64,000 nucleotides of DNA from contig CAYLPP010000008.1 in NCBI GenBank assembly GCA_964385615.1, positions 31,150 through 95,149 on the forward strand, given 5' to 3'. Shown piece by piece: positions 2,862-48,591 of the stretch (the first letter of the stretch is position 1; each line of letters opens with the position of its first letter). The translations under genes were made by a program, and so were the position numbers. The notes under the pieces were generated by a model. That model was not told the DNA's origin and did not search any database. It saw only the letters and a program-made list of their open reading frames with translations. This stretch comes from an uncultured bacterium. Its GTDB lineage: Bacteria > Omnitrophota > Omnitrophia > Omnitrophales > Aquincolibacteriaceae.

Positions 2862-5800
2862 GTGATAAAACCTGCGCAACGAGGCGGAAAAAAAACAGGG
2901 GTTTTCCTCCAAGCAGGATTTTTGTCTCTTTTTTTTCTGTTTTTCCTCGCGACATCTTCCTTCGCTGAAATCCGCCAGTGGGATTTTGATAATCCCGAAG
3001 ACTATCAATTCGATCAAAACCAAATTAAAATTAAAGACGGTAAAGCAAGTCTGATTCCCGTCGCGCCTTATCGCGATGCCGGCGCTCAATCTTTTCAGCG
3101 CGGTCAGTTTGATTTGAACACGACTGTCGACCGCGGAACTTTGGAACTTTCACTTCGCGGTCCGCAGGAAACGGCAGGCCCCGAACTTCCGTCGCCGGTC
3201 GGTAACCGCGAACCTGGACTCGCCGCGCTTTGGCATCTTGATGAACCGAACGGAACCAATCTTTTGGATTCTGTGGGGAGGACGGTCGCGAAAGCAAGTG
3301 ACGCCGAAGTTGTCAGCGGCCAAACCGGATTTGGTTACGCGCGTCTTTTTGACGGCGAAAAAAGTTTTGTTTTTATTCCGCATTATGAAACGCTCAGCCT
3401 CCGCGGTCCTTTTTCAATTGAAACCTGGATTCGCCCGCTCGCGGTAAAATCTTCCAAACCGCAAACGATTGTTTCCCGCTGGCAGACGGTTGGGGCCCAG
3501 CGCGGATTCGCGCTTCAAATTAATACGGAGGGGAAACTGGATTTTCTGGTTTCCGCGGACGGCGCGACCGTGACTCACCAATTAGGAAATACTGTTTTAA
3601 GCGATGGGGTCTGGCAGCACGTCACCGCGGTTTATACCGGCAGTGACCTCCGCATTTATGTGAACGGAATTTTAGACAGCGCTCCGCTGGCTTTTTCCGG
3701 GCCTGTTTATTTTGCCGACAACCCGGTTTATCTGGGGGCTCTCGTAGACAATCGCGTCGATCAGTTCTATCAGGGTGTCATTGATGAGGTCGCTATTTAT
3801 CAAAGACCGCTGACCGAAACGGAAACTCTGACTCATTTCGGAAATATTCAGGGCCTCGCGGGGCTCTGGCATCTGAATGAGCGCGGGGGAGTTCTGGCGG
3901 ATGCTTCCGGGTATGGTCAAAACGGGAATGTTTCCGGGGATGTCCGCTACGAGACTGAAGGCCGGATGGGAACAGGCTTGGGGTTTTCAGGCCATAATGC
4001 TTATGCTCAGATTGCCGGTTCCAGCCGGTTGGCTCCTCAGGGGCAGATCACTCTTGAAGCCTGGATCAAGCCGGAAGTTTTTCCAGGCCTAGGCCGGCGC
4101 GCTTCGGTCCTTTCTATATATGAAGAACCCGCCCCGGGCGGAGCTCCGGGAGGCGGGGAGATTTCTCTTTCAGTTTTAGGGCCGGATGGGCGGATTGCCG
4201 CTTACGCTTCCAAGCTTCAGCCCGCCGAAGTCCGGGGCCGGATTTCCCTGACTCCCGGTGTCTGGCAGCATGTGGCTGTGACCTGGAGCGAAGGGCGTGT
4301 TCAAATCTACAATAACGGAATTCGTGACACGTCATCGGCCTATACCGGGTCACTTGATTTTGTTTCCAAAGCGGCAATGCGTTTGGGCACGGATGCTTCA
4401 GGAACCAGTGCCTTTCAGGGGAGTATTGATGAAGTTGCGGTTTATCGCCGCGCGCGCACCGGTTCTGAAATAGCGGCTTCAGCCGGACTTTTCGCGCCTT
4501 CAGGAATTTTCACCTCAGAGGTTAAGGATGCCGGCGGAGTTTCCCCGTGGAAGACTGTGGAGTGGAAACTTCCTCTCGACTACGGTTTGGCTAATAACGG
4601 ACAGGAAGCCGGGCTTCTGCACCTTTTTCATCTGGATGACCGGGAAGGCTCCGGGATCACCAACTCCAAAGGAGAAATTCAGGCAAGCCCTATCGGAACG
4701 TATCCGGTTCCTGGCATTTTCGGGCAAGCCCGCTGGTTCGCGGGTAAAGGGTATGACAAGATTTTGTCACAGAAAGATTTTCCCGCTCTCTCTACTTTCA
4801 GCATCAGCTGTTGGTTTGAATTTGCTTCCGGTCAGGCCGGGCTGAGCGACCGCATTTTCAGCATCGGTGACGGGAACCCGACGGTCTTCCGTGCCGGGGA
4901 CGGCCGGATGCATGTTCAGATGCAAGGCGCCCGTGAAATTATCGGCGACCGGATTCTGGGTGACAGCCGGTGGCATCATCTGGCACTGACGGCTGACGGC
5001 CGGAATCTCTTCTTATATATAGATGGTCTTCTGGACGGGGTTTCTCCTTTTATGACGGCCTCCGCTCAGAGCCCGCTTGTGCTTGGCAATTTAAAGAGCA
5101 CGGATACCTTTCAGGGCGCGATTGATGAATTTCTTTTTTACAATTATCCGCTCGACCGTGACACCGTGCTTCAGCAATTCCTGCGCGGGCAGATGGATGC
5201 CAAAATGCTGGTGCGCAGTTCCGACAGCAAAGATTTTTCGAGTGCGGCCTGGCGCGGTCCTCAAGGGGTGAAGCTGGAAGAAGAGCCGGCTATGTTCACC
5301 TCAGCGCTCTGGCATTTTGATGAAAAAGTTTTCCGCGGTCAGCCTGGGGAAATTCAGGATGCAGGACATTTCGCCAATCACGGAACGGTCTTCGGTAAAA
5401 TCTCTTCTTTCTCAGACTCGATTTCCGGAAGCGCGGTTCGTTTTAACGGGAGTACGGACTTTATCCGCGTTACGGACACCGACAGCCTGCACCCGGATAA
5501 ATTTACCATTTCCGCCTGGGTTCGCCCGGATGAGATGGCCGAAGGCCAGGTGACTCTGATCGATAAACAGTTTAAAGCGGGCGCGCCGGTTTTTTCCTCA
5601 TTTGCTTTGGATTTGATCGCGGGGAACCGTCTCGCTTTGCGTTTGGGCCGGCCCGGCGGGTACCGTCAGATTGAAACCGGGCGCGATGGAGAGGTTGCCG
5701 CGGGCAAGTGGAATCATGTCGCCGCGGTTTTTGACCGCAAAGAAGTCCGGCTGTATATCAACGGTAAAAAAGTGAAGACGGCTGATTTCCGTGAGCCTGT

Positions 5801-8800
5801 TCCTTACGATGACGGCCCTCTTTATTTCGGCCGGTACGCTTCTTCCGAAGCGCGGTACTTTCGCGGAGCTCTGGATGAAGTTCATCTGATGAACACACCG
5901 GCTACGGACGCCGAGATTGAATCCCGTTTTGCTCAGGCGGATCCTGGAAATTTTTTCCGGCCGTCCGTAGAAACGCCCGCGGGAGTTTCGCCCGCCCGTT
6001 ATTTCCAGTATCGTGTTTTTCTTAGCACGCGTCAGCCTTTTGCGAGTCCGGCAGTTTCCGAAGTTAACCTTCGGGGCAGTTCATTTCCCGCGGGGCGTCC
6101 GGCCGTTTCTCCCCGGAGCGGAATTTCCTACGCTGAAATTTCAAGTTTCACCGATAAGAAGGGGGCGGGAAACGCGGGGCATGTGACTTATCAGATTTCT
6201 CCGGACGGTTCGAACTGGTTTTTTCATAACGGACGGCGGTGGGTGGTCGCGGCCGGTTCTAATGAATCCAATACCTCCGATCAGATTCAGACCCAGGTGA
6301 ATAGTTTCGCAAAAGAGGTTGGGATGGGCAGTTTTTACTTCCGCGCGTTTCTTCAATCGCCGACCGGCATGGAGCCTGCCGAAATTGAAGATGTCGAAGT
6401 GGAATATCTCCCGAATAAAGTCACGGTGACTTCGCCTAATGGCGGTGAGGCGCTTCTGACCGGAACCTCGCAGGTTATCCGCTGGAATACCGCGGGTGAA
6501 ATGAAGAAAGTCTCTATCGAATATTCCAAGGACGGGTTTCATAATGATTTTCATGAAATCGCCAAAGGGATCGACAATACGGGAAGTTTTGAATGGAAAG
6601 TTCCGGATGACCTCTCGACTTCCGTGAAGGTTCGGGTCATGGACAGCCTCGACCCGCGGATTTACGATATGTCGGATATTTCTTTCCGCGTTACGGGAAA
6701 GTTTGAGTTGATCACTCCGAATTCAGAAGAACGCTGGATGGCCGGAAGTCCGCAGAAGATCGTTTGGAGAACGCAGGGGAAGATTCCTGAAGTTAAACTG
6801 GATTACTCCACGGACGGTTTTGAGAAAACGGTTTTTCCGATCGTTGATTCCGTTAAAAATGAAGGCTCCTTTGAGTGGAAAGTTCCTGACCATCTTTCGA
6901 AGTTCGTCAAAGTCCGTGTTTCGGATGTCCGTGATCCCGAGGTTTTTGACAAGTCCAACGATTCTTTTTCAATTACCGGAGGTTTAGGGATTCTTTCTCC
7001 TCAGCTGGGAACCCGCTGGATCACGGGAAGTCAGCAGGAAATACGCTGGCAGTCGGTTGGAACCATTCCTCTGGTGAATATCGAGTACTTTACTTCCGGG
7101 CGGGGAGATTGGGTCAGGATCGCGGAGAATTTTGAAAGCCGGGGCAGTTTTATGTGGCAGGTTCCGGATGATATTGACGGCCAGGTTCAGATCCGCGTGA
7201 TTGACGCTTCCGACTTGAGAGTTTCCGCTGAGTCTGAACCTTTCGCTATTGTCGGCGGGTTGCGCCTGCTTAATCCGAAAGGCGGGGAGCAGTGGACGGC
7301 CGGAACACGGCGCAAGATTGCCTGGGAGACCATTGGCAGTATTCCCGCGGTAAATCTTGAGTATAAGTCCGGAGCGGATACCGCCTGGCAGACGATTGAG
7401 AAAAACACCGCCAACACCGGGTCTTATGTCTGGGAAGTTCCGGCTTCTTTAAATGGCGCTTTAACGGTTCGGGTTGTTGACGCGCGTGATCCTTTTACCG
7501 AAGCCGTGCACGCTTCGGCTTCCAGCGTGATTCCCGGTTTTCATCTTCAGGCGCCTAACGGCGGTGAGGAATGGAAGATCGGCACCGAACAGCAGATTAT
7601 CTGGGAAACCACGGGCGAATCATCCCAGGTCCGGCTTGAATATTCCAAGGACGGTTTCAAAAGTGATATTCATGAAATTATCGCCGCCGCTTCCAATCTG
7701 GGGAGTTTTACCTGGACGGTTCCGGATGATGCTTCGCAAAATGTCTGGATCCGGGTTTCTGATTCAAATAATTCCACGGCCCAGTCTTCTTCCAACGCGT
7801 CTTTCCGGATTTACGGCGGTTTTGAAATTCAAATTCCCAAAGGCGGAGAGAAATTTGAAGTTGGAAGTCAGGCGACGTTCGTCTGGGATACTTTGGGAAC
7901 TCTTCCCAATGTCCGGCTGGAATATTCTCATGATGATTTCGCCAAAGATTCGCGTCTGATCGAAGCCTCCGCGCCGAATGAAGGCCGTTATACCTGGACG
8001 GTTCCGGATGATATCGGGGACGGGTACCGCCTGCGGATTTCAGATACGCGTGATCCTAAAACCGAAGCTTATTCCAAAGAACCTTTCGCGGTCATGGGGA
8101 ATTTCCATCTGATTTATCCGGTCGGCGGGGAGGATTTGATTGCCGGAACGGTCGCGCGGATCGCGTGGCGCGGAGCCGGTTCGGTTCCTGTGGTCCGGAT
8201 CGATTACTCTGAAGATGATTTTCAGAAAAGCTTCAACACGATTACCGATAAAGCCCCGAATAACGGCGCTTATGACTGGACGGTCCCGAATTTGATCGGG
8301 CGCCAGTTCAAAATCCGTGTTTGGGACCCGTCTCAGCCTGATTCTGTGGATGTGATGAAACAGTCCGCGCGGATCGTTGGCGGTTTCCGGCTGATGGAGC
8401 CCAACGGCGGGGAAGTTCTTTATGTGGGCGACCGTTCCATGATCAAGTGGGAAACGTCCGGCACTCTGCCCCGCGTCAAACTGGAGCTTTCCACGGATAA
8501 TTTTACCCGGGATATTTCGGTGATCGCCGATTCCTATCCGAATAACGGTCAATATGACTGGCTGGTTCCTGACGCGCCTTCCGGCAGGTACAAAGTCCGG
8601 GTTTCGGATCCTCGTGACGTAACCGCGTTTGACATTTCAAATGCTGATTTCCTGATCCGTTCCCGGTTCACGCTTCAGTCGCCCAACGGCGGTGAAGGCT
8701 GGGCGGTCGGTGAGAAAAAAGATATCCGCTGGCAGACTTCGGCCGCTGTTTCCCAAGTCCGCCTGGATTTCACCACCAACGATTTTCAAAGTGTTTCCGT

Positions 8801-19130: not shown

Positions 19131-19340
19131 TTTCTCAATACAAAGCCTAAAATAGAGCTAAAATTAATGGTATCATTAGTCGATATTACTAATCGGCTTA
19201 CCTATTTGCAATAAATAGTTATAAATTGCTAGTTAATGCAACTTGAATCTTAGCCGGAATAAGGCTATCCTTAGGAAAAGTTAGGTTTGATAACTTTAAA
19301 AATTAACCGCATAAACCTTAATAACCATCGTCCAATAGGC
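19131..19340. promoter_or_regulatory. AT-rich intergenic region, candidate promoter for the downstream PQQ-propeller gene
   Basis: Around 210 nt are markedly more AT-rich than the flanking coding sequence (aaattaatggtatcattagtcgatattactaat...ataaatagttataaattgc). Several TATAAT-like hexamers are present. Confidence 0.3.
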
Positions 19341-20552: not shown

Positions 20553-20586
20553 TGTTAAAAATTACAAAATCAAAACGGAGGAAACA

Positions 20587-21207: not shown

Positions 21208-21228
21208 CTTTTTTTAACGGATTCAATT

Positions 21229-21277
21229 TCGCCTGCCTTGCTGTTTCTCCGTACCAGCGAGGCAGGCGATCCTTTTT
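21229..21277 (+). terminator. Rho-independent terminator
   Basis: A ~15-bp GC-rich stem (tcgcctgccttgctg / cagcgaggcaggcga) has an 11-nt loop and is followed by tccTTTTT. It lies 22 nt after the stop of the preceding gene and directly before the AAGGAGG RBS of the next. Confidence 0.7.
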
Positions 21278-21289
21278 AAGGAGGCCGTA

Positions 21290-22255: not shown

Positions 22256-22274
22256 ATCGAAATGAAAAGTTTGG

Positions 22275-23750: not shown

Positions 23751-23845
23751 CTTTTAAGAGTATTTCGCAATTTGTGATCAAGGCAAACCCCGGGTAACCG
23801 GGGGGCGCAAAGCCGTGCGTCCTTAACAACGAAAGGATAGGCAGG

Positions 23846-39400: not shown

Positions 39401-42400
39401 CCAAGCTGGAATATTCCACGAACGCGTTCGCAGATGAAAGTCAAACGTTCTCCATCACGGCGGCCACCCCGAACACGGATTCTTACGCTTGGTCGATTCC
39501 GGATGCTATCGGCAGCGCGGTGCGCGTGCGCGGCAGTGACGCCGCGGACTCCACTGTGAATGATACTTCCGACAACAATTTCACGATCAAAGGTTCTTTG
39601 ACTCTGACTTCTCCTAACGGCAGTGAAATCTGGAAGGTCGGTGAAAGCCGTGCGGTTACGTGGAATAAAGCGGGCAGTATCGCCAACGTTAAACTGCTTT
39701 ATTCAAACAACGGCGGTTCGACCTACGGCTTTACGATTACAAATTCGACGGATGCCAACACGGGTTCCTACACCTGGACCGTGCCTGACACCATCAGCGC
39801 GCAGATCCGAGTTGAGGTTTCTGACGTCACGGATGCTACCGTGAAAGATTCTTCCGATGCCAATTTTGAAATTAAGGGCACGGTTCTTTTGGTTACTCCC
39901 AACGGCGGGGAACAGTGGGCGGTCAATACCGCACACAATATTACCTGGACCAAGACCGGTACTTACTCTTCAGTAAAACTGGAATATTCCACGAATGCTT
40001 TTGCTGACGAACTTCAAACGACGACGATCGCGACCGGCGTGGATTCCGTGACCGGGACGCCTTACAGCTGGACGATTCCGGACACGATTAGCTCCAGTAT
40101 CAAGGTCCGCATTACCAATGAATCCGACTCGGCTGTGACTGACAAGTCGGACAATACATTCAAGATTGTGGGTTCACTGACTTTGACGGCTCCCAACGGC
40201 GGAGAAAGCTGGAATGTCGGAACTTCTCAGACCGTTTCCTGGGACCGCGTGGGTTCGATCGCCAACGTCAAATTGGAATACTCCACTACCGGCGCGGCGC
40301 CTTATCCGAATTTGATCGTTTCTTCCACGTCTGCCGGCGCGGGCGCTTATTCCTGGACGATTCCGGATTCTATCGGCACCACCCGTAAGGTTAAGGTGAC
40401 CGACGTGACGGATTCCACGGTTTATGACGAATCGGACGCTAACTTTGCCATTGTCGCGACTTTCAATATTACTCAGCCTAACGGCGGTGAAGTCTGGACG
40501 GTAGCTTCCACCCAGAACATTACCTGGACAACAACCGGTTCAGTCGCGAACGTGAAGTTGGAATACTCCGTGGATAACGGCACTGACAGTTACGGGAATG
40601 TGATCGCTAATTCGACGCCGAACAATTTGACTTACTCCTGGCAGATTCCCGACACCATCAGCACTCTGATGAAGGTGCGTGTCAGCGATGTGAATAACGC
40701 CAATGGTTTTGATACCTCCAACGCTGTTTTTAAGATTCGCGGCGCGCTGACGGTTGATGCTCCGAACGGCGGTGAAGCGTGGGGTATCGGTACGAACAAG
40801 ACGGTTCAGTGGACCCGCACGGGTTCGATTGCCAACGTCAAACTTGAATATTCCACCAACGGTTTCTCGGATGAACTGCAGACGGCTTTGATTGTTGCTT
40901 CGACGCCTGCTGATCCGGCTCCCTCCGATAATATTGGAACCTATTCCTGGGCCATTCCTGACGTTCCGTCTACGACGGTTAAGGTCCGGGTTACCGACGT
41001 CGCGGATTCAACGGTGCTGGATACCTCAAACGGTGTTTTCAGCATCAAGGGTTCTTTGACGATTACGGCTCCTAACGGCACTGAAACCGGATCGAATTCC
41101 TGGATTGTCGGCACGCCCTACAACATCACCTGGATCAAGGGCGGCGCGATTTCCAACGTTAAACTTCAGTACTCAACGGACAGCGGTGTGACTTGGCCGG
41201 ATCCCAGCAAGGTCATTACGACTTCCACCAGCGCCGGTTTCCTGAGCTATACCTGGACGATTCCGGATGATATTACCAATAAAGGCCGTGTCCGTATTCT
41301 GGATGCTAACGACAATAGCGTTAACGACGTTTCTGATGCTGATTTCTCAATCAAGGGTTCTCTGCACCTGACTTCACCGGATGGTACTGAAATCTGGACG
41401 GTGGGTGATACGCACGCAGTGACCTGGACCAAGACCGGTACGATCGCCAACGTCAAACTCGAATATTCAACCGACGGCGGATCCAATTATACCGGCACGA
41501 TCACGGCTTCAACGGCCGCGGCCGCGGGCACGTTTAACTGGACGATTCCGGATTCCATCAGCACTCAGGTCCGCGTGAAAGTTACGCAGACCAACGATTC
41601 TTTTGTGACGGACGCGTCGGATGCCAATTTGGAAATTCGCGGTTCTCTGACGGTCACTTCGCCTAACGGCGGTGAAGTCTGGCGCGTGGCCGATGCTCAG
41701 CCGATTACCTGGACCAAGACCGGTACGATCCCGACTGTTGAAATCGATTATTCCATCAACGGCGGTTCAAGCTATCCGTTTACCATCGCAACGGGCGTGG
41801 CCGGATCTTCAGGCAGTTATTCCTGGACGATTCCCAACGCGATTACCACCAATGCCCGTGTGCAGGTTGTCAATGAAAGTGACACTCAAGTGTTTGACGG
41901 GTCGGATGCCGATTTTAAAATTGCCGGTTCCATTACAGTGGTTTCGCCTAATGGCGGTGAGAAGTGGGCCATTGGAAGTTCCAAGAATATTACCTGGACG
42001 ATTACGGGTTCTATCTCAAGTGTTAAACTGGAATATTCCACCGACGGCGGCTCCACTTACCCGAACATTATTGCCGCTTCCGTGAATGCTTCAACCGGCA
42101 CGCCTTATGCCTGGACGATTCCGGATGATCCCACGACTCAAGGACGCGTGAAAGTTACGAACACGGCGGACACCACGATCTTTGACGCTTCTAACACCAA
42201 CTTCAAAATTCAAGGTTCCGTGACCGTGACTCAGCCTAACGGCGGTGAAGCCTGGAACGTAGGTGAAACCAAGAGCATTGTTTGGAGCAAGACGGGTTCC
42301 TTTGCCAATGTGAAAATCGATTACTCCGTTGACGGCGGTTCGACGTATCCGAACATTGTTTCGGCCTCCACGCCTTCGGGCAATCTGAGCTATGCCTGGA

Positions 42401-45400
42401 CGATTCCGGATGATATCTCTACGACCGCCCGCGTTAAGGTCACGGATACTAATGACAGTGAAGTGACGGATGAATCAAACGCTGATTTCACGATTCGCGG
42501 TGTCTTTACGGTTACGGCGCCTAACGGCGGTGAAACCTGGCGCGTCGGTCAGGCTCAGAATGTTACCTGGACCGTTACGGGTTCAGTGGGTAACGTGAAA
42601 ATTGAATATTCAACCAATGCTTTCGCGGATGAAAGCCAGACTAATCTGATTGTCGCGACGACTCCGGCGGGGAACTTGACCTATGCCTGGAACATTCCGG
42701 ACGCGATCAGCAATACGGTGAAGGTCCGTCTGACGGACGTGGACGGAATTTCTCTGGGTGACGTTTCTAACGGAAGTTTTTCAATCAAGGGTTTGATCAC
42801 GCTGACGTCGCCTAACGGCGGTGAATCTTACGGCGTCAACAGCGCGCAGAATATTACCTGGAACCGCACGGGTTCTTTCTCCAATGTGAAGCTGGAATAT
42901 TCCACCAACGGATTTTCGGATGAAAATGAAACCAATCTGATTACAGCCTCGACTCCGGCCGATCCCGCGCCGGTCGATAATACCGGAACTTACGCCTGGA
43001 CGGTTCCCGACGCGATTTCAATCACGGTGAAAGTCCGTGTGACTGATGCCAATGACGCGGCCACGACCGATACCTCGAATAACAATTTCACCATTCGCGG
43101 CGTGCTGACCATCACGGCGCCTAACGGCGGTGAAAAGTGGATTGTCGGTACGGCCCAGCTGATTACCTGGGACCGCCAGGGTTCAATTTCTAACGTTAAA
43201 TTGCAATACACGACTAACGGATCGATTTATACGGATATTATTCTTTCAACCCCGAATACCGGCACTTATGCCTGGACGATTCCGAACTCCGTTTCCACCA
43301 CGGTTAAGGTCCGTATTTATGACGTGAACAATAACACCGTGACGGACGATTCTGATGCCAACTTCAAGATTCAGGCCGGTTTCACGCTTTCTTCGCCTAA
43401 CGGCGGTGAAGCCTGGCTGGTCGGCAGTACGCACTCCATTGACTGGACGACTTTTGGTACCGTGCCTTTTGTCCGCCTGGATTATTCCACGGACAGCGGC
43501 GCCAATTACAGTAATCAGATTAGCACCTCGACCGGCAACAGTGGAAGCTACTCCTGGGTAGTTCCGGACAGTGTTTCTGGAACGGTTAAAGTGCGCGTCT
43601 CTGACACGAATGACGTGACGGCCAATGATGAATCTAATGCCGACCTGCGCATTCGCGCTTCGATCAGCGTGGTTACGCCTAATGGTGCTGAACAATGGCG
43701 CGTTGGACGCAGTCAGAATATTACCTGGGGTATGGTTGGTACGATTCCGAACGTGAAAATTCAGTATTCTCGGGATGGTTTCTTCGCGGATATTCAGACC
43801 GTTGCGGCTTCCGCGCCGAACACCGGCACCTATGCCTGGACCATTCCTGACAGCATTTCCAATGTGGTTAAGGTCAAGATTATCGATCCGAATGATATCG
43901 GCGCTTACGACATTTCCGATGCTAACTTCCGTATCACAGGCGATTTCGCGATTACGTCGCCCAACGGCGGTGAAAAGTGGAACGTGGATTCCGATCATGA
44001 CATTACCTGGACTCACGCGGGTACGGTCAGTGATGCCACCCTGGAATATTCCACGAACGCGGGCGGCAGCTGGAACCCGATTACCGGTTTGACGCCTAAT
44101 AACGGCGCTTACACCTGGACGATTCCGGATTCCATTACGGCCCAAGGCCGTGTTCGTATCAGTGATCCGAATGATTCGACGGCCAATGATATTTCTGACG
44201 CTAATTTCAAGATCCGGTCGTTCTTTACGCTGGGTGCTCCTAACGGAACTGAAATCTGGACGGTGGGTGATGTGCACGCGATTACCTGGACTAACACGGG
44301 TACGGTCAGCAACGTCAAGCTGTGGTACTCCACTGATAGCGGCGCGACTTTCCCGAATGTGATTATCGCTTCGACATCGAACACGGGGACCTACAACTGG
44401 ACGGTTCCGGATTCTATTTCAACGACGGTTCGTGTACGCGCGGGCAGCCCGACGGACGTGGATGCTTACGATGATTCCGATGCAGACTTGAAGATCCGCG
44501 GTAAGTTTGTGATTTCCGCGCCTAACGGCAATGAAAAATGGAAAATCGCCCAGGCTTCAAATATTCAGTGGGTTACGACCGGTACGATTGCTGATGTGAA
44601 GCTTTACTATTCGACTAATTCCGGCTCAACTTTCCCGAATGTGATCGCGGCTTCAACGCCTAACGGAGCCAGCGGCGCGACGGCTTCTTACAGCTGGACG
44701 GTTCCGGATGACGCGAGCACCATGGCGCGCATTCGCGTTGAAAATATTGCCGACACGACGGTTTATGACGATTCTGACGCTGACTTCAAGATTCAGGGTA
44801 ACTTTATTCTAACCGCGCCTAACGGCGGAGAGCAGTGGATTGTGGGCGATTTACACAATATTACCTGGAACTGGGGCGGTACGATTGCCAACGTTAAGCT
44901 GAGCTACTCTGTTGACAGCGGTTCGAACTATTCACAAGTGATCGCGGCTTCGGCTCCTAATGGTTCGGGCGGTTCCGGTTCCGCTTCCTACAGCTGGACG
45001 GTTCCGGATGATATTTATTCCACGCTCCGCGTGAAAATCGAAGATCCGAATGACGCTGAAGTTTTTGATGAATCGAACGCGGACTTCAAAATCACCGGTT
45101 CTTTCCTGATCACTTCGCCGGCCGGCGGTGAACGCTGGGTGACGAACGAAGTTCACGCGATTACCTGGAACACCACGGGTACGGTACCGACCGTGAAACT
45201 GACCTATTCGCACGACAATTTCGCGACCTCGAATCTGATCACGGCTTCGACGGCGAACGCTGATACTTATAACTGGACGATTCCTGATCCGGGCATCAAC
45301 AACATTCCGAAATCGACTCGTGTGCGCGTGGAAGATACCCGCGACGCGAATGTGAACTCAACTTCCTCAGCTTTCAACATTGACTACTACTACATCACCT

Positions 45401-47073
45401 GGGACATCCGCGATCTGCGCACCAACGCTCCGTTGAGCGACCTGACGGTCAAGCAGACCAAGAACACGGATGATACTTTCGTGCAATGGCAGGAAACCGG
45501 CATCAGCGCTAACCCGCCGAGAGTTCAGCCTACGCCGTACGGCATCTGGGGCACGACCTTCAGCAAAACCCAGTACGGTGATCTTGTCGTGGTCGTGGAA
45601 GCTAACAGCGATCAGACTAAGAAAGAATTCATGGAAACGACGGTTATTCATATCTGGGATGCCAACTCTCAGATCGCTTACAACCCGACCACTCAGACCC
45701 TTAAAGTCACCCTTCGTCTGATTCAGGATATGCAGTTGGTTTCCGGCGTGACCCGTATTATTTATCAGATTTTTGACGGCGCCGCCTTGATTGGTTCCTT
45801 CAAGGTTCATGATGAAATGACCAACAACCTGGAAGATCCCTGGTATGACCCGGATGCTAACGTCGCGATTGCTTCAGGCGCGGCCAACCTGTTCAACGGT
45901 AACTGGGAACTGGTGCTGGATGCGGGGCCGAGCGGTTTGAATCTTCAGCCCGGTAAGGTTTACACCACGCTGACCAAAATGTCGATTGCTTCCGGCGGTA
46001 CGTTCAAGACGCCCAACAGCTTCGATATCACGGCCACTTATAAACTGCAGGACGTGCAGAACACGATTAATGACAAGCTCGATATTTCACTGTCCGACGC
46101 GACCGCGGCCATTCAGGACAATATGAATACTCAGTTCACAACCCTTTCTGATACTGTGACGAGCAAACTGGATGCCACGCAAACTGCTGTTGAAACCAAG
46201 CTTGATACGACCCGTGATGTGCTGGTCGCGAAGATGCAGGAACAGACCGATACCATCAATACGGCCATCACTGACTTTACCCAGAAATCTGATGAAGCCG
46301 TTTACCGCATGGAAGACTCCATTACGGCCGGCGCCATCCGTCTGATCACTCCGGAATCCACCAAGGTCGGGTTCCAGGAACGTATTCAGGTCGCGACCGA
46401 TCCCGCGGCCAGTGTGACCGCCGATTTGATCTGCCCGGACGGTACTCCGATTTTGAGTCTGATTCTGCCCGCGTCTGCGGTGCAGGAAGGTATTTTTTCG
46501 GTTCCCGTGAGATTTGACGCTCAAACTTTCAAGTGCGCTGTTGCTAAAGCCGTGACGATTGTTGCCACGGCCACGATTCCCAGTAAGAATCCGGCGAACC
46601 CGGCTTTCACCACCAGCGCGGTGCGCAGTATGTTCCTGGTGACGGCGACTAACGACGATATTATCGCTTCGACCTCAGGTGTGGCCAACGCTCAGAAGGC
46701 CGCGGAAGCCGCGAAGGACGCAGTCGAACAGATGGGCAAAGCTCTCAAGGGCAACGGCAACATTCAAGATTCCCTGGCCCGCTTACAGCAGTCTATGGAC
46801 CGGTTCCCGTCATTAATGAAATCGGGCGAAGGCAATATCAATGCCCTCAAGGCGTCACTTGAAGAAATCGCTTCCAAGCTCAATGGCTTCATGGGCAATG
46901 AAGGTATTGATATGAAGCAGCTGCTTAAGCAGGAGATCGGTGAAGGCATGAAGGGGGTCCGTAACAAGGTTGACCGGACCCTGGCCACGACCCAGATTAT
47001 TCAGAAAATCACAGAACAAAAGCTTGGGGGAAGCGATGCTCCTGTCGTTAATTCCTACTATGAAACCGTTTAA
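24436..47073 (+). CDS. Giant secreted Ser/Thr-rich repeat protein (7,545 aa): signal peptide, duplicated N-terminal domain, ~65 tandem ~98-aa beta-sandwich repeats, conserved C-terminal module
   Basis: An uninterrupted 22.6-kb ORF with a GTG start. The signal peptide is ASFLLWSISFVLTGSAQA|AQ. From aa ~626 the repeat consensus is G(S/A)xT(V/I)T(S/A)PNGGExWxVGxxQNITWTxTGSIANVKLEYSTNGFSDExQTxxIxASTPxxGxYSWTIPDAIGTxxKVRVSDxxDSTVxDTSNANFxIK. The sequence is Ser/Thr/Asn/Gly-rich throughout. Confidence 0.9.
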   Translation: MNHTLTFTRKVVQASFLLWSISFVLTGSAQAAQIKKVYRGIATFDAAETLQAVPIGGSVDPTKTVVLVTNTQSTNTAYDRSLFFVAQLAGNDTIQIERGGADGTNTASAAWQVIEFAEGVRVQAGISAVDKGSLSKDITVPPLSPAMDITKTVPIIMVRTPMGTNNAGRYQRTHQLFLQPSLATDGTSVTMTLTRLEANSTTGDKAVAVAWQLVEFTTDATVRAGDVCMRVPASAGSQTVTNDGLDPDGGTTNCGTNSSAFSPALNSSSTAMLFFYPMYGSGLNGEDNRIFISGTVSNSTTVSFSRGYAATTASSHVQIKYYVVDWNDGSAALGAGARGSLSSASHPARIGVSAGTDAVDPATIQITTASAHGYQVGDAVILAGCLTNTAANGTYKVSNVPSSTTFEINTFDGDIVEGSGAGAETGSADYVAKFQEVNMTTALTTADIDRMINWTTFSGPNNSNTSTSSSNADDLAHESFLYTKSGSVYLATRRAPDGELAGSTPVTIQYHVYEFPEMTLDSPNGAENLTVGQAVNVNWTAADSVATNDWKLQISTDAPHATWTDLTTANGLGTCGAGGNSDCTGTDLSTGTIQWTVPDQISSTARLRIVDTTSGASLARRSDTSNADFNIRGSLTVTAPNGGETWNIGAASNVTWTKTGSLDYSTVTLKLSLDSGGSFPTTITSLLTPSAQTYSWTPTNSHDGTANRVRAELASDPTYVYDESDADFTVQGSITVVAPNGGESWATQSDEDITWTRTGAFANVKIEYSTNSGGSFPTLIVASTPADPAPVDNAGVYTWTNIPTGTISTFGRVKVSSTSNLNVADESDADFSIVPSIKVTSPDNGTEVWRVGEANNITWDLNGALANVKIEYSKDNFVGDINLIVASTNADPAPVDGSGYYQWTIPDDITATAKVRVSNALDANKYDISDNNFKIRGNITVVSPNGGEVWPVASSQNITWAKDGTLGNVDILYSINGGSSYPNTLATNQAGTSWNWDPIPDAINSNLKVKVRSTTYNTDTEDVSDATFAIKGSFTITSPNGSEQWGAATSNAVTWTYTGTMSTAKIEYDDNSGLNGYASLVVASVAVSDQTYSWTLPSTVGTHYRVRISSNDDATVYDTSNSDFSIRGSVTLTAPNGGQTWVVGTNQNITWTYVGTIANVKLEYSTDGGSNYLAGGLITNSAPVSQAYTWTVADAIGTQLRVRVSDANDSTVNDQSDANFTIKGSLTITAPNGGEAWVVGASNNITWTKTGTIASVKLDYSTNGFSDELQNFAIIGSTPGGLLSYAWTIPDAIGTTLKVRIADLSDLTVKDESDFNFGIKGSVTITAPNGGESWSVGSSHNITWSKTGTLTGNMKLEYSTDNGGSWLVGNLITNSVLASAGTYAWTLPDSPGVQTLVRATQVDDTSVTDTSDGAFSIKGQLILTAPNGGETWVVGEGRDVEWTRIGSIANVRLDYSINSGSTYPNQITASTPASNESYTWTIPDAIGTGLKVKVTDANDSSVNDVSDAVFEIKGSLTVTAPNGGETWVVGNSQNVTWTKTGTIANVMLEYATNAFLDESTTATIVASTPGANLSYAWTIPDAIGNNLKVRVTNLADTTVKDVSDAAFAVKGSLTVGSPNGSEAWIVGESRNIVWSMTGSLQNVKLEYSTNGFSDELQTTLIVASTAAETNPPAGTGSGQYAWTVADAIGTSLKVRVTDVDNSTVTDVSNAVFTIKGSVTVTAPNGGEIWAVLEDHDITWTRTGSFNNVKIEYSTDSGSNFSSVTASTPADPAPVDNAGKFTWTIPDNITIQGRVRVSDFDDATVVDTSDANFKIRGGLAVSTPNGGEKWTVGDSQNISWNKFGTITSTVKLDYTKNGGSNYTSIATGLNVTTASPYAWTVPADTSQTVKIRVMSEADTDTFDLSDANFKIMPKFAVTSPNGGEVWSVASSQTLGWTTQGSATNVRLSYSVDGGNNYATEITSSTSNTGSFSWTVPDAIGTAVRIRVENASDSEAFDDSDANFKIRGVVQVTSPNGGESWNIASAHAVTWNITGSIANVKLEYSTNGFADEGSTATIIASTPADPAPVDGTGTYSWTIPDTPSSSVKVRVSDASDSTASDTSNATFYIRGSLALNAPNGGEAWVVGATQNIQWTRTGSIANVKLEYSNDSGSTWPAGKVIVASTPADPAPADNIGLYSWTIPDDIGTLLRVRVSDAADAAVEDTSNADFTIRGAVTVTSPNGGETWIVGDSQNITWTSSGSFLNVKIEYSTNAFANETQTSTISGSTPNDGTYSWAIPDAIGTALKVRISDASDANVVDVSNAAFEIKGSLTITSPNGSEVWKVGENRSITWNRTGSITTAKLEYSTNGGSSYPNTIIASTDATTGSYAWTVPDAISSALKAQITNTDDTSVKDASDANFEIKGTLTLTSPNGGESWKVNSQHNITWTKTGTQATVKLEYSTDGFADELQNVTIATGVDAVTGTPYVWTIPDAIGSAIKVRVTNEADSAVKDASDTNFKITGSLTLDSPNGSENWAVASVQTVAWTVVGSIANVKLEYSTNSGSTYPNVITSSTAAGAGAYSWTLPDSIGSTRRVKVTDATDSTVSDTSDADFSIIGGFQMTSPNGGEVWTVASGHSVTWNTDGTVANVKLEYSTNGFSDELATTQIVASTTNSGTYSWTIPDAISSTVKIRVSDASNSVAYDLSNGNFKIRGALLVNAPNGGEAWFIGNSQNIQWTRTGSIANVKLEYSSNGFADENQTDVIIASTPADPAPADNIGIYSWTIPDTPGTANKVRVTDASDATVLDTSNANFSIKGQLVMTSPNGGEVWTVGAVNNVTWSKFGAIVNVSLQYSTDSGGTWPGANVITASTAADPAPTDNIGVYSWTIPDEIGTQVRVRVVDTADSSTYDDSNADFKIRGSVTITAPNGGENWIVGTNQNITWNSTGSFSNVKLEYSTNGFSDENQVVSITTSTPNNGSYSWAIPDAIGTTLKVRASDVSDSTVVDTSNANFTIKGALAITSPNGSEVWKVGESRNITWNRSGSITNVKLEYSTNGGSTFPNTIIASTGAASGTYSWTVPDSIGTQLRIKATDVSDSTVSDASDANFEIKGTVTVTSPNGSEVWVVGTQHNVTWTKTGTYAAVTLEYSTNGFTDELQNNTIATGVDAVTGTPYAWTIPDVIGTTLKVRVTNEADAAVKDASDLNFKVTGAFVLTAPNGGENWAVGLNKTVTWTRTGSIANAKLEYSTNSGSTFPNVISASTGAAAEAYIWTIPDVIGSTRRVKISDASDASVYDTSDADFAIMGSFTVTAPNGGEVWTVGSAQSVTWTTDGTVANNKLEYSTNGFSDENQTSVMTASTPNTGSYSWTVPDAISTTVKVRVSDASNANAYDISNGNFKVRGALLLTAPNGGEQWLIGNSENIAWTRTGSIANVKLEYATNGFADESTTATIIASTPADPAPADNAGTYSWAIPDTPGTSNKVRVTDASDSTVLDTSNAVFSIKGQLVMQIPNGSEVWVVGGVNNVQWSKFGSISNVALYFSTDSGGTWPGGNQIVASTAADPAPIDNVGIYSWTIPDQIGTQLRVRVQDADDASTYDDSNNDFKIRGSITITAPNGGENWIVGDTQNITWNHTGSFANVKLEYSTNGFSDESQTVSITTSTPNNGSYSWAIPDAIGTSVKVRASDVSDSTVVDTSNVNFTIKGSLDLTSPDGSEVWKVGENRNITWNRSGSIANVKLEYSTNGGSSYPNTIIASTDAATGTYSWTVPDSIGSQLRVKVSDVLDATVSDTSAANFSIKGTVTVGSPNGGEVWAVGTQHNITWTKTGTYATVALEYSTNGFSDELANTTIATGVDSVTGTPYTWTVPDVIGSTLKVRVTNETDPSVKDTSDLNFKVVGSLTLTAPNGGENWAVGSSKTITWTRVGSIANAKIEYSTNSGTTYPNVIVASTGAAAEAYIWTIPDAIGTTRKVKISDASDASVNDVSDADFTIMGAFAVTAPNGGEVWTVGSAQSVTWNTTGTVSNVKLEYSTNAFSDELQTGVMIASTPNTGTYSWTVADAISALNKVRVSDVNNANAYDLSDAIFKIRGAIIVTAPNGGEQWEIGTSQNITWTLTGSIANVKLEYSTNAFSDELQTAVIVASTAADPAPVDGTGTYAWTIPDSPSTTTKVRVTDASDSTVLDTSNANFALKGRLVMTAPNGGEIWVVAGVNNITWDKFGSISNVALYYSTDSGGTWPGANQIVASTNADPAPIDGHGVYAWTIPDLIGTQVRVRVQDAIDPSTYDDSDADFKIRGSITITAPNGGETWIVGDTQSITWNHTGSFSNAKLEYSTNGFSDELQTSTITGATTNNGSYSWGIPDAIGSSVKVRGSDAGDSTVNDASNANFTIKGALLLTSPNGSEVWKVGESRNITWNRTGSIANVKLEYSTNGGSAYTNTIIASTGAGSGTYAWTVPDSIGSQLRVQVSDVTDSTVNDASDANFQIKGTVTLTSPNGGEVWVVDSHHNITWTKTGTYPTVKLEYSTNGFTDELQNTTIATGVDSVSGTPYDWTVPDIIGSAIKVRVTNETDTTVNDASDLNFKVTGAFTLTAPNGGEEWAVGASQTITWNRTGSIANAKLELSTNGGSTYGTVIQASTGAAAEAYIWTIPDSIGVNRRVRISDASDANVKDTSDADFSILGSFTVTSPNGGEVWTVASAQSIGWSTVGTVANVKLEYSTNAFNDELQTVTIAATAPNTGSYSWTVSDAISALAKIRVSDVNNANAYDISNAVFKIRGALTVNAPNGGEAWLIGNSQNIQWTRTGSIANVKLEYSSNGFSDELQTDVIVASTAADPAPADNIGLYSWTIPDNPGTANKVRVTDASDATVLDTSNANFSIKGQVVLTIPNGGEVWTVGGVNNITWNKFGAISNVKLQYSTDSGDTWPDPANVITVSTAADPAPTDNIGVFSWTIPDAIGTHLRVRVQDTADSSTYDDSNADFKVRGRITITAPNGGEAWVVGTSQNITWTHAGSFPNAKLEYSTNAFADESQTFSITAATPNTDSYAWSIPDAIGSAVRVRGSDAADSTVNDTSDNNFTIKGSLTLTSPNGSEIWKVGESRAVTWNKAGSIANVKLLYSNNGGSTYGFTITNSTDANTGSYTWTVPDTISAQIRVEVSDVTDATVKDSSDANFEIKGTVLLVTPNGGEQWAVNTAHNITWTKTGTYSSVKLEYSTNAFADELQTTTIATGVDSVTGTPYSWTIPDTISSSIKVRITNESDSAVTDKSDNTFKIVGSLTLTAPNGGESWNVGTSQTVSWDRVGSIANVKLEYSTTGAAPYPNLIVSSTSAGAGAYSWTIPDSIGTTRKVKVTDVTDSTVYDESDANFAIVATFNITQPNGGEVWTVASTQNITWTTTGSVANVKLEYSVDNGTDSYGNVIANSTPNNLTYSWQIPDTISTLMKVRVSDVNNANGFDTSNAVFKIRGALTVDAPNGGEAWGIGTNKTVQWTRTGSIANVKLEYSTNGFSDELQTALIVASTPADPAPSDNIGTYSWAIPDVPSTTVKVRVTDVADSTVLDTSNGVFSIKGSLTITAPNGTETGSNSWIVGTPYNITWIKGGAISNVKLQYSTDSGVTWPDPSKVITTSTSAGFLSYTWTIPDDITNKGRVRILDANDNSVNDVSDADFSIKGSLHLTSPDGTEIWTVGDTHAVTWTKTGTIANVKLEYSTDGGSNYTGTITASTAAAAGTFNWTIPDSISTQVRVKVTQTNDSFVTDASDANLEIRGSLTVTSPNGGEVWRVADAQPITWTKTGTIPTVEIDYSINGGSSYPFTIATGVAGSSGSYSWTIPNAITTNARVQVVNESDTQVFDGSDADFKIAGSITVVSPNGGEKWAIGSSKNITWTITGSISSVKLEYSTDGGSTYPNIIAASVNASTGTPYAWTIPDDPTTQGRVKVTNTADTTIFDASNTNFKIQGSVTVTQPNGGEAWNVGETKSIVWSKTGSFANVKIDYSVDGGSTYPNIVSASTPSGNLSYAWTIPDDISTTARVKVTDTNDSEVTDESNADFTIRGVFTVTAPNGGETWRVGQAQNVTWTVTGSVGNVKIEYSTNAFADESQTNLIVATTPAGNLTYAWNIPDAISNTVKVRLTDVDGISLGDVSNGSFSIKGLITLTSPNGGESYGVNSAQNITWNRTGSFSNVKLEYSTNGFSDENETNLITASTPADPAPVDNTGTYAWTVPDAISITVKVRVTDANDAATTDTSNNNFTIRGVLTITAPNGGEKWIVGTAQLITWDRQGSISNVKLQYTTNGSIYTDIILSTPNTGTYAWTIPNSVSTTVKVRIYDVNNNTVTDDSDANFKIQAGFTLSSPNGGEAWLVGSTHSIDWTTFGTVPFVRLDYSTDSGANYSNQISTSTGNSGSYSWVVPDSVSGTVKVRVSDTNDVTANDESNADLRIRASISVVTPNGAEQWRVGRSQNITWGMVGTIPNVKIQYSRDGFFADIQTVAASAPNTGTYAWTIPDSISNVVKVKIIDPNDIGAYDISDANFRITGDFAITSPNGGEKWNVDSDHDITWTHAGTVSDATLEYSTNAGGSWNPITGLTPNNGAYTWTIPDSITAQGRVRISDPNDSTANDISDANFKIRSFFTLGAPNGTEIWTVGDVHAITWTNTGTVSNVKLWYSTDSGATFPNVIIASTSNTGTYNWTVPDSISTTVRVRAGSPTDVDAYDDSDADLKIRGKFVISAPNGNEKWKIAQASNIQWVTTGTIADVKLYYSTNSGSTFPNVIAASTPNGASGATASYSWTVPDDASTMARIRVENIADTTVYDDSDADFKIQGNFILTAPNGGEQWIVGDLHNITWNWGGTIANVKLSYSVDSGSNYSQVIAASAPNGSGGSGSASYSWTVPDDIYSTLRVKIEDPNDAEVFDESNADFKITGSFLITSPAGGERWVTNEVHAITWNTTGTVPTVKLTYSHDNFATSNLITASTANADTYNWTIPDPGINNIPKSTRVRVEDTRDANVNSTSSAFNIDYYYITWDIRDLRTNAPLSDLTVKQTKNTDDTFVQWQETGISANPPRVQPTPYGIWGTTFSKTQYGDLVVVVEANSDQTKKEFMETTVIHIWDANSQIAYNPTTQTLKVTLRLIQDMQLVSGVTRIIYQIFDGAALIGSFKVHDEMTNNLEDPWYDPDANVAIASGAANLFNGNWELVLDAGPSGLNLQPGKVYTTLTKMSIASGGTFKTPNSFDITATYKLQDVQNTINDKLDISLSDATAAIQDNMNTQFTTLSDTVTSKLDATQTAVETKLDTTRDVLVAKMQEQTDTINTAITDFTQKSDEAVYRMEDSITAGAIRLITPESTKVGFQERIQVATDPAASVTADLICPDGTPILSLILPASAVQEGIFSVPVRFDAQTFKCAVAKAVTIVATATIPSKNPANPAFTTSAVRSMFLVTATNDDIIASTSGVANAQKAAEAAKDAVEQMGKALKGNGNIQDSLARLQQSMDRFPSLMKSGEGNINALKASLEEIASKLNGFMGNEGIDMKQLLKQEIGEGMKGVRNKVDRTLATTQIIQKITEQKLGGSDAPVVNSYYETV
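26332..45381 (+). repeat. In-frame tandem array of ~65 copies of a ~95-103-aa repeat (same fold family as in giant protein 1)
   Basis: The array shows continuous PNGGE...W...LEYS...W(T/A)IPD...(V/I)R(V/I)...D(A/T)S(D/N)A(N/D)F motifs. Unit length is ~285-310 nt. Confidence 0.85.
30760..41049 (+). repeat. Higher-order repeat: five consecutive copies of a 7-unit block, period 2,058 nt (686 aa)
   Basis: Block starts at 30760, 32818, 34876, 36934 and 38992 (next at 41050) are exactly 2,058 nt apart. Unit 1 of each block (GQLVMTSPNGGEVW...SKFGAI.NVSLQYSTDSGGTWPGAN...ADPAPxDNIG.YSWTIPD) and unit 7 (...ASTPADPAPADN.G.YSW.IPDTPGT.NKVRVTDASD.TVLDTSNA.FSIK) are diagnostic. Copies are ~80-85% identical at nucleotide level, with mostly synonymous differences. 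More degenerate copies lie on both flanks. Confidence 0.85.
45382..47073 (+). other. C-terminal module of giant protein 2, paralogous to the C-terminus of giant protein 1, ending in a coiled-coil-like tail
   Basis: DYYYITWDIRDLRTNAPL...PYGIWGTTFSKTQYGDL aligns with DYNHVSWTVRDLRTGEHL...PYGIYTTVWSKPGYGEF of giant protein 1. The tail has heptad-like T/Q/D-rich helical segments (KLDATQTAVETKLDTTRDVLVAKMQEQTDTINTAITDF). Confidence 0.7.
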
Positions 47074-48382: not shown

Positions 48383-48591
48383 AAAACATTATCGTTATTG
48401 CCATTATGTTTATCGGAACGCTGGGGCCTTCCATGGTTATCGCGGCCGTGGGTTTTGCCAGCATCATGGCCCTGGGCCGTAATCCGTCGGCTTCACCCAA
48501 GATTATGCTGGCTATGATTATCGCTCTAATTTTCGCGGAAGCGATCGCCATTATCGCTCTGCTCGTCAGTTTTCAGGTGTTTACGCCATGA
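48379..48591 (+). CDS. atpE: F-type ATPase c subunit (proteolipid), H+-type
   Basis: A TTG start overlaps the atpC stop (TTGA). It forms a two-helix hairpin: Gly/Ala-rich helix 1, RNP polar loop (GRNPSASPK), and a conserved carboxylate in helix 2 (LIFAEAIAI). No Na+-site Q/ES/T residues are present. Confidence 0.75.
   Translation: MKNIIVIAIMFIGTLGPSMVIAAVGFASIMALGRNPSASPKIMLAMIIALIFAEAIAIIALLVSFQVFTP

Follow-up and report, generated by a model that had tools for sequence, protein, structure and literature searches.

Two neighboring giant genes were found to occupy most of a 64-kb stretch of Omnitrophota DNA (hereafter the window; all coordinates are window positions), and we consider it fairly probable that their products are long, Sec-exported fibers whose heads bind surfaces or host cells, and that one of them, P2, is tethered through its C-terminus and is made, under the control of a cyclic dinucleotide, together with a type II secretion system (T2SS)/type IV pilus (T4P)-like machine and an unusual ATPase. 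The products of giant genes 1 and 2 are called P1 and P2, whereas related loci and related proteins carry three-digit L and four-digit P numbers, respectively.

Both open reading frames (ORFs) are real genes and belong to an Omnitrophota bacterium. As the initial annotation had claimed, they run uninterrupted for 5,422 and 7,545 codons, with zero internal stops in either, and together make up about 61% of the window (60.8%), with 5.3 kb between them. The probability that such frames would be stop-free by chance was ~1e-113 for P1 and ~1e-157 for P2. A different explanation would be that assembly expansion, collapse or chimeric joins produced lengths and copy numbers that are not real: misassembly is common among repetitive genes, public relatives are nearly all cut at contig ends, and integrity was judged here from assembled sequence. 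However, this appears very improbable. P1 has no exact DNA repeat longer than 22 nt and P2 none longer than 34 nt, and repeat collapse is thus unlikely; Tandem Repeats Finder (min_score 100, period up to 500) reported zero repeats; the frames stay open over 16 and 23 kb; and the DNA identity of repeat units did not exceed ~86%, over short stretches only. In addition, a complete orthologue of 6,910 amino acids (aa), P0014, was present on an independently assembled Joint Genome Institute contig, and its order of head, shaft and C-terminal module as well as its downstream genes matched those of P2.

Most of each protein is a shaft built from one repeat family. Using a hidden Markov model (HMM) that was started from a few repeat units and then iterated, we counted 106 contiguous units of ~91-100 aa (40 in P1 and 66 in P2), all with domain E-values of at most 1e-18 (at most 2e-19 for all P1 units) and with the consensus TxPNGGExWxVGxxxxITWxxxGxxxNVKLEYSTxxF...NxGxYxWTVPDxIxxxxKVRVxDxxD...FxI. 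The sole Pfam family recurring in P1 and P2 was PF10342 (Kre9_KNH, Kre9/KNH-like immunoglobulin (Ig)-like; gathering score 24.6 bits). Seventy of the 106 units matched this family singly at E<=0.01 (best 4.7e-7; unit 1, 25.2 bits), and the other 36 were too diverged for a match alone. Longer segments gave 262 bits (E=3e-79) for aa 1201-3300 of P1 (2,100 aa) and 74-124 bits for three segments of P2. An AlphaFold model of three units was an extended all-beta rod (predicted local distance difference test (pLDDT) 96.7, predicted template modeling score (pTM) 0.88), straight and fibronectin type III (FnIII)-like, with fixed inter-domain geometry and no lattice-forming features seen. The repeat therefore belongs to PF10342 both by its score above the gathering threshold and by its Ig-like beta-sandwich fold, and, because the units are Ig-like and the three-unit model is an extended rod, the shaft can be described as a rod of beads on a string. 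FnIII arrays span ~3.5 nm per bead, and at the same spacing the shafts would be ~140 nm (P1) and ~230 nm (P2) long. A search of the PDB sequences with the repeat returned designed beta-propeller/repeat proteins and low-significance matches, with zero real relatives.

The two shafts use different versions of the unit. P1 repeats were richer in charged residues and proline (D+E+K+R 23.8%, Pro 5.6%, S+T+N 19.7%), whereas P2 repeats were rich in Ser, Thr and Asn (S+T+N 32.7%, D+E+K+R 15.6%, Pro 3.9%) and P2 contained 132 N-x-S/T sequons against 22 in P1. Unit-to-unit amino acid identity averaged 35% in P1 (maximum 49%) and 49% in P2, where the maximum of 92% fell within a seven-unit super-repeat. 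This super-repeat (2,058 nt, ~7 copies, ~30.5-43.2 kb, positions 30518-43156) had copies ~68-76% identical in DNA, and inter-unit identity in P2 peaked at lags of 7, 14 and 21, a periodicity that was absent from P1; part of the P2 shaft has therefore grown via duplication of a seven-unit block. These results bear out what had been stated in the initial annotation about more than 100 copies of one repeat family, its core motif string, the compositional split between the two proteins, the PF10342-like beta-sandwich fold and the rod-like beads expected from AlphaFold on consecutive units. On the other hand, its remark that such domains occur in other giant bacterial surface proteins found no backing in the literature, which for PF10342 was largely fungal with none on bacteria in the incomplete coverage of our search.

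Sec-type signal peptides, also assigned to both proteins from the beginning, could be read by inspection (...LATSSFA-EI and ...GSAQA-AQ), and a hydropathy scan (19-residue window, mean >1.6) flagged only the N-terminal segment of P1 across both proteins. The region that follows differs between them. The head of P1 matched Laminin_G_3 (PF13385, 6.4e-108 in 4 stretches) and Laminin_G_2 (1.9e-20); the LamG fold is typical of carbohydrate or protein binding. The linker domain of P1 gave nothing usable against Pfam or NCBIfam at permissive thresholds, and the same was true of the P2 head (~490 aa), for which a word-indexed database search found one fragmentary relative and blastp matched the head of P0014 at 8e-14. 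Both heads are candidate host-recognition domains. No enzyme, SecA or dockerin domain was among the Pfam matches of P1 or P2.

After the last unit, the two proteins end in modules of ~480-560 aa that are homologous to each other (blastp 2.6e-9, 17% identity), and the P1 module also matched the tails of related giants with E-values down to 6e-27. HMMER, run exhaustively against 1.84 billion representatives, found the module in 107 proteins, nearly all of them long or truncated, and 58 of 108 proteins (these 107 plus one match to the P2 head) also had the repeat. Judged by this search, the C-terminal module is a small and lineage-restricted family. Among ~50 public members of at least 1,400 aa, P0014 was the only one with an intact N-terminus, the others being cut at contig ends. 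Word-indexed searches with the P1 and P2 modules gave one fragmentary match each, that of P1 on a context-free 1.8-kb contig; a scan of genome contigs with the P1 module gave zero related loci; and a PDB sequence search with the module returned designed helical bundles and low-significance matches, with zero real relatives.

How P2 is held on the cell is indicated by the gene immediately downstream, which encodes a 322-aa protein (mem322, hereafter the anchor) with no usable match in Pfam or NCBIfam at permissive thresholds. In seven related loci (L004 and L006-L011, of which L007 is Ca. Taenariivivens), the giant ORF extends in frame into a counterpart of residues 59-~300 of this protein and ends in the transmembrane (TM) helix, and the module and anchor were fused in 16 of 23 database representatives covering the full module. 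The split point lay in every case just past a conserved GGxDxP(I/V)V strand. Since they are fused in most relatives, P2 and the anchor would act as one unit, and the fusions also fix the topology, with the N-terminal head distal and the C-terminus at the cytoplasmic membrane. Thus, comparison of related sequences indicates that P2 is tethered to the cytoplasmic membrane via its C-terminus by the 322-aa protein. An AlphaFold2 model of the artificially joined P2 tail and anchor (mean pLDDT 66, pTM 0.36) started with a pair of beta-sandwiches and a helix of ~100 residues; after a poorly predicted region came a helical bundle, a junction beta-sandwich, three helices and the TM helix. In the junction sandwich (pLDDT ~80-89), strand 555-563 is formed by the nine C-terminal residues of P2 and strand 566-574 by the beginning of the mature anchor, so that the final P2 strand probably completes the beta-sandwich of the anchor where the two proteins are separate. 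A fold search with this model gave generic beta-sandwich matches only, including the MpIBP shaft (4p99). If an Ig-like shaft, a ~550-aa module, a split or fused single-pass anchor and ATPase genes are taken as the marks of a tethered fiber, P2 shows all of them; for P1, the module only was recognized, in a diverged form.

The P2 gene sits in a block of conserved gene order. Directly 5' of the ATPase genes, 13 Omnitrophota loci have a giant ORF that carries this repeat, and the order of giant gene, 322-aa protein, epsilon, c, b/delta, alpha, gamma, beta, MshEN and GspE/F/I/J/K/L/M was kept across the phylum. The order from ATPase to pilus genes was also observed in L001-L012, L014, L016, L019-L020, L022-L023, L025 and L081-L083. 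In the window, 499 nt separate the end of ATPase beta (55123) from the start of GspE (55622), compared with the limit of <10 kb used for ATPase/type IVa pilus co-location. The ATPase alpha subunit shared 88-90% identity with that of three 'uncultured bacterium' contigs from metagenome-assembled genomes (MAGs) and 77-82% with that of other MAGs, among them Ca. Taenariivivens baikalensis and isolates of Ca. Omnitrophota; at 48-60% identity, the matches were again mostly MAGs of Omnitrophota (two labeled Planctomycetales and one unlabeled), which agrees with the uncultivated lineage suspected at the outset. Subunit a was not found in the ATPase operon of the window, nor ATP-synt_A among the gene calls of L081-L083; because there is no proton path without it, the enzyme is probably not an ordinary ATP synthase.

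In every locus examined, the anchor gene adjoined epsilon-c-b/delta-alpha-gamma-beta, without subunit a, and a homologue of the anchor stayed next to ATPase alpha even where the giant proteins use other repeats. The shaft seems to be interchangeable and the base conserved. Four more distant loci (L020, L022, L023 and L025; two from Omnitrophota MAGs and two labeled Planctomycetales) keep a giant ORF together with the ATPase, GspE/F and an anchor-like gene in duplicate. Their giant ORFs (truncated at the end of the locus, with lengths of at least 826 to 2,832 aa) were rejected as family members, having neither this repeat nor the C-terminal module; in the three that were scanned (L022, L023, L025), the repeats were Big_1 or Lysostaphin_N-like, and one also had a toxin-like Ntox33 match. 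Within the window, the genes from P2 to GspM overlap or are separated by short gaps, except for 141 nt before an inserted PAS-domain histidine kinase gene, consistent with co-transcription. Promoter and terminator scans found sites no commoner than in shuffled sequence, and operon boundaries were therefore deduced from these gaps only.

Elements related to cyclic di-GMP (c-di-GMP) lie at the start of the block and further within it. An Rfam scan of the window found one element only, a c-di-GMP-I-class aptamer of the GGC variant. It ends one base before the ATG (23855) of a small gene, u197, which in turn overlaps the start of giant gene 2, and the sole Shine-Dalgarno-like stretch, GGAUAGGCAGG, sits within the aptamer, which suggests that the riboswitch acts by translational control. 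In L081, a canonical c-di-GMP-I riboswitch (RF01051, 55.5 bits against a gathering score of 35) at 7856-7971 on the + strand heads the matching string of genes. Both elements belong to Rfam clan CL00126, with a score above gathering and a position in the 5' leader on the coding strand. L081 is the only relative with a complete 5' end of the giant gene, as those of L082 and L083 run to the contig end. In the same locus, a terminator-like hairpin follows the riboswitch, an IS200/IS605-type Y1 transposase gene lies between riboswitch and giant gene, and HD_5 (HD-GYP-like) and HAMP proteins are encoded upstream of the riboswitch (1-4324). MshEN domains, which bind c-di-GMP, were found in the window both as a stand-alone protein and on GspE; GspE of L083 (23541-25694) has a PilZ domain besides MshEN.

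Table 1. Features of the 64-kb window of Omnitrophota DNA
Feature	Coordinates	Strand	Description
Secretin (GspD/PilQ-like outer-membrane channel)	204..1769	+	Pfam Secretin 3e-48, Secretin_N 3e-20
Tetratricopeptide repeat (TPR) protein	1790..2836	+	Between secretin and giant gene 1; several TPR families, best 5.6e-14
Giant gene 1 (P1)	2862..19130	+	5,422 aa, 597 kDa, isoelectric point (pI) 5.1, start GTG; signal peptide, 4 LamG, 40 Ig-like units, diverged C-terminal module
P1 head	3159..5921	+	~aa 100-1020 (approximate boundaries); four Laminin_G_3 (concanavalin-A-like lectin) domains
P1 shaft	6420..17696	+	40 Kre9/KNH-type Ig-like units, aa 1187-4945; own HMM and PF10342
P1 C-terminal module	17697..19127	+	aa 4946-5422; homologue of the P2 module without the terminal PxVxxxY strand
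BamB/PQQ-type beta-propeller protein	19287..20552	+	N-terminal hydrophobic segment; PQQ_2 1e-39
Small secreted protein, 206 aa	20587..21207	+	Signal-peptide-like N-terminus; no Pfam/NCBIfam match
Class-A beta-lactamase-fold protein, secreted	21290..22255	+	Beta-lactamase2 3.1e-33
Polytopic membrane protein, 491 aa	22275..23750	+	Many hydrophobic segments; no Pfam/NCBIfam match even at E<=5
c-di-GMP-I-class riboswitch aptamer (Rfam GGC variant)	23773..23854	+	RF03167, 64.9 bits against gathering score 59, E 2.9e-15, full-length model
Small secreted protein u197, 197 aa	23855..24439	+	Stop codon overlaps giant gene 2 start; L081 homologue before giant gene
Giant gene 2 (P2)	24436..47073	+	7,545 aa, 796 kDa, pI 4.4, start GTG; signal peptide, lineage-specific head, 66 Ig-like units, C-terminal module
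P2 head	24529..25986	+	~aa 32-517, beta-rich; no known family; homologue is the P0014 head
P2 shaft	25987..45381	+	66 Ig-like units, aa 518-6982, with 7-unit super-repeat
P2 C-terminal module	45382..47070	+	aa 6983-7545; two beta-sandwiches, ~100-residue helix, low-confidence beta region, helical bundle, terminal strand
Anchor (mem322), 322 aa	47098..48066	+	Signal peptide, beta-sandwich, helices, C-terminal TM helix aa 243-271, charged tail
F-type ATPase genes	48137..55123	+	epsilon 48137-48382, c 48379-48591, fused b/delta 48602-49351, alpha 49367-50833, gamma 50833-51696, beta 53714-55123
PAS-domain histidine kinase	51837-53711	+	Inserted between ATPase gamma and beta
Stand-alone MshEN (c-di-GMP-binding) protein	55182..55607	+	NF053729 c-di-GMP_motif 3.3e-20
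T2SS/T4P-like machine	55622..62764	+	GspE (MshEN N-domain) 55622-57340, GspF 57348-58595, GspI 58579-58986, GspJ 58983-59651, GspK 59648-60661, PilM/N-type GspL 60654-62219, GspM/PilO 62216-62764

Several other genes accompany the two fibers. Three secreted proteins, namely the beta-propeller protein, the 206-aa protein and the beta-lactamase-fold protein, are encoded between the giant genes (19287-22255), and the last of these is possibly active on peptidoglycan, either its own or that of a host. The 491-aa membrane protein, which had no relatives in one metagenome-contig scan, raises the idea of a candidate fiber-modifying glycosyltransferase, because its gene lies between the giant genes and P2 has many sequons and is rich in Ser and Thr. 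The protein u197 had nothing usable against Pfam or NCBIfam at permissive thresholds and matched a 164-aa protein of L081 (blastp 3e-6). The histidine kinase insertion is common to the closest relative, L001, only and is absent from other loci; a response regulator gene is located at 63136-63597. With regard to the T2SS core set, D, E, F, I, J, K, L (PilM/N-type) and M are present in the window, in which GspH was not found and GspF overlaps directly into GspI; missing genes could lie outside the 64 kb. An exact look-up of the GspE sequence of the window returned no record.

Based on these observations, we propose that each protein would consist of a distal N-terminal head, a shaft of Ig-like beads and a family-specific C-terminal module. 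P2 would be held at the cytoplasmic membrane by the protein encoded just downstream, which forms one polypeptide with it in most relatives. Because the P2 gene belongs to the conserved block and a secretin gene lies further upstream, the T2SS/T4P-like machine and the secretin would deploy the P2 fiber across the outer membrane, while the c-di-GMP-class riboswitch and the MshEN domains would tune fiber production and deployment. The fiber may then reach out to surfaces or host cells and bind them, and P1 would be a second, carbohydrate-binding fiber. Extended surface fibers or adhesins had been the original suggestion for both proteins; the rod and the signal peptides support it, and what we infer here is strengthened by the LamG head, the C-terminal tether deduced from gene fusions, the T2SS/T4P-like locus and the c-di-GMP control elements.

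A number of observations weigh against this proposal. That the fibers are exposed at the surface, adhere and cross the outer membrane, perhaps via the secretin, is deduced from domain content and gene neighborhood only, and the ligand of the riboswitch and any role of the ATPase are likewise deduced. The helical TM anchor places the C-terminus of P2 in the inner membrane, and we know of no T2SS or T4P that threads a tethered 800-kDa polypeptide through a secretin. In the 64-kb window, no gene for a major pseudopilin (GspG/PilA), GspC or a prepilin peptidase was found, and L081 does not have the secretin 5' of its giant gene. To our knowledge, no ligand has been established for the GGC variant RF03167, and conservation of the riboswitch extends to two loci only, the window and L081, because related giant genes are almost all truncated at the 5' end. 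The model of the C-terminal module and anchor is of moderate confidence, and its query was an artificial fusion. Finally, P1 has neither the terminal strand nor an adjacent anchor gene, and its attachment to the cell is therefore unexplained.

Some of the same evidence can be read in other ways. The giant proteins could form a C-terminally anchored, surface-layer (S-layer)-like envelope with a protective or size-determining function (the 'velamen' idea for Velamenicoccus) rather than act as adhesins. An extracellular coat is reported to have been proposed for a giant protein of V. archaeovorus (Seymour 2023, PMC10066038), the acidic, Ser/Thr/Asn-rich and sequon-laden P2 resembles many S-layer glycoproteins, and a membrane tether suits a coat as well as a fiber. 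However, the straight FnIII-like rod of the three-unit model without visible lattice-forming features, the LamG head of P1 and c-di-GMP control, both of which are typical of adhesins and pili, and the linkage to a pilus/secretion machine, which would be unexpected for an S-layer, make a coat rather unlikely. The two proteins, P1 especially, might also be free extracellular fibers or matrix, that is, released T2SS substrates that perhaps deliver neighboring enzymes to the walls of prey. This reading is more plausible for P1, which has a Sec signal but no anchor gene or terminal docking strand, whose gene lies directly 3' of those for the secretin and TPR proteins, and after which the secreted beta-lactamase-fold protein is encoded. 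On the other hand, no catalytic domain was found in either giant protein, P2-type proteins are covalently TM-anchored in most relatives, and a 600-kDa rod of ~140 nm would be far beyond known T2SS cargo, so that we regard release of one or both proteins as quite improbable.

The constant company of the ATPase raises a mechanical interpretation, in which the fiber and anchor would be coupled to the F-type ATPase lacking subunit a (a rotor ring plus F1) and ATP hydrolysis would move, retract or rotate the fiber, as in motility or grappling similar to that of Mycoplasma mobile. The invariable position of the anchor gene beside the ATPase genes, and its persistence next to alpha in lineages whose giant proteins use other repeats, would fit such a motor, and in Seymour 2023 (PMC10066038) alpha is placed with Mycoplasma type 2/3 ATPases and attachment and motility are suggested. 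Nevertheless, the argument is one of guilt by association only; subunit a may be encoded elsewhere in the genome, the likeness to Gli349/Gli521 is an analogy, and the T2SS ATPase GspE would be an equally plausible motor. A coupled motor therefore appears quite improbable as well. More speculatively, fiber, anchor, ATPase and T2SS/T4P-like platform could form one envelope-spanning machine, an 800-kDa 'monomolecular pilus' tethered in the inner membrane, threaded through the secretin, driven by ATP and controlled by a cyclic dinucleotide, which would represent a new attachment or predation apparatus; we consider this unlikely on present evidence. The tethered, surface-binding fiber thus remains the reading that we prefer.

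Compared with published Omnitrophota giants, the gene pair itself is of a known type. Giant ORFs of this phylum have been suspected of an adhesive or predatory role, LamG_3 domains have been noted in those of Omnitrophia, and a non-respiratory F-type ATPase co-located with type IVa pilus genes has been linked with attachment (Seymour 2023, PMC10066038). T2SS-like loci and pilZ genes adjoin giant genes (West-Roberts 2023, bioRxiv 10.1101/2023.11.21.568195), and a 'tandem-repeat scaffold' class with diverged DNA repeats has been described (Nielsen & Lui 2026, bioRxiv 10.64898/2026.06.07.730766). P1 and P2 share with these giants the great length, export and one-domain repeats, GspD/E/F-type and c-di-GMP-binding neighbors, diverged DNA repeats and a proposed role in attachment. 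However, the giants of the latter two sources have at least 10,000 or at least 30,000 aa, many TM helices and SecA-DEAD, dockerin or enzyme domains, whereas P1 and P2 have 5.4 and 7.5 thousand aa, no predicted TM helix past the N-terminal signal and none of these domains. Assignment to the Archaeovorin/dockerin type (West-Roberts 2023: >30,000 aa, TM-rich, SecA-DEAD and/or dockerin) was thus rejected on size and domains. The gspD/E/F genes used as a criterion in that study are close to the giant genes here as well, in a different arrangement: the published secretion locus lies 5' of the giant gene, whereas here it is mostly 3', with the ATPase operon between. The window also contains exactly the co-location described for 'symbiotic' ATPase/type IVa pilus loci (Seymour 2023), with alpha relatives in Omnitrophota, but giant ORFs (>20 kb) and ATPase/pilus loci are treated as separate signatures in the available part of that paper (PMC10066038), whereas here the giant and anchor genes are integral to the locus.

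Likenesses to more distant systems were also observed. Repeats-in-toxin (RTX) adhesins secreted by a type I secretion system (T1SS), such as LapA, MpIBP and SiiE, have a comparable size of hundreds of kDa and a shaft of Ig-like beads that projects a ligand-binding region. The surface retention of LapA is controlled by c-di-GMP. However, RTX adhesins have a C-terminal T1SS signal, RTX repeats and outer-membrane retention by the N-terminus, whereas P1 and P2 have an N-terminal Sec signal and P2 a C-terminal inner-membrane tether; membership in this class was rejected, as no HemolysinCabind or T1SS family was among the Pfam matches of P1, P2 or their neighbors in the window. The gliding machine of Mycoplasma mobile (Gli123/Gli349/Gli521) likewise combines giant 'leg' proteins encoded together with a non-respiratory F1-like ATPase. 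The likeness goes no further than analogy; the organism here, which has a secretin and a T2SS/T4P-like machine, appears to be diderm, and its operon keeps c, epsilon and b/delta. The giant, mostly Ig-like GhpA grappling hooks of the predator Aureispira catch prey, and a GhpA fragment (9fls) was among the Foldseek matches, but at the generic Ig-fold level only (E ~2e-7, TM-score 0.2) and from a different phylum. The export system of Aureispira GhpA differs from the one here. Fungal Kre9/Knh1 and Ser-Thr-rich glycosylphosphatidylinositol (GPI)-anchored proteins, the founders of PF10342, share with our repeat a match to this model above threshold; however, the fungal domain occurs as one copy on small GPI-anchored wall proteins, compared with 106 tandem copies in the bacterial fibers.

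In the literature searched, the coverage of which is incomplete and in which some sources were accessible in part, there was no report of PF10342 arrays in bacterial giants or of a C-terminal module with a split or fused anchor, and no mention of a giant gene as a fixed member of an ATPase/pilus locus or of a c-di-GMP riboswitch ahead of it; 'Kre9' and 'ATP synthase' each had 0 occurrences in the accessible text of West-Roberts 2023. What appears to be new is the combination at the level of the locus, that is, a tethered fiber, its anchor, an ATPase without subunit a, a secretion machine and a riboswitch. The initial annotation had recognized the gene pair and read it well, yet it missed the shared C-terminal module, the anchor gene, the ATPase/secretion block and the riboswitch.

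Omnitrophota are widespread, ultra-small bacteria with a presumed life on other cells, and most of their giant genes are known as fragments that resist interpretation. The window presents two complete giant genes of tractable size, which are unusually good references for the family because public relatives are nearly all cut at contig ends. The locus also gives a parts list together with testable hypotheses about the tethered end, the identity of the anchor, the machine and ATPase that travel with the fiber, and the likely switching signal. If the ATPase were mechanically coupled to the fiber, the apparatus would represent a motor-driven appendage of a kind new among prokaryotes. Our results turn the vague idea of a 'giant adhesin' into a specific and testable proposal for the suspected attachment apparatus of Omnitrophota.

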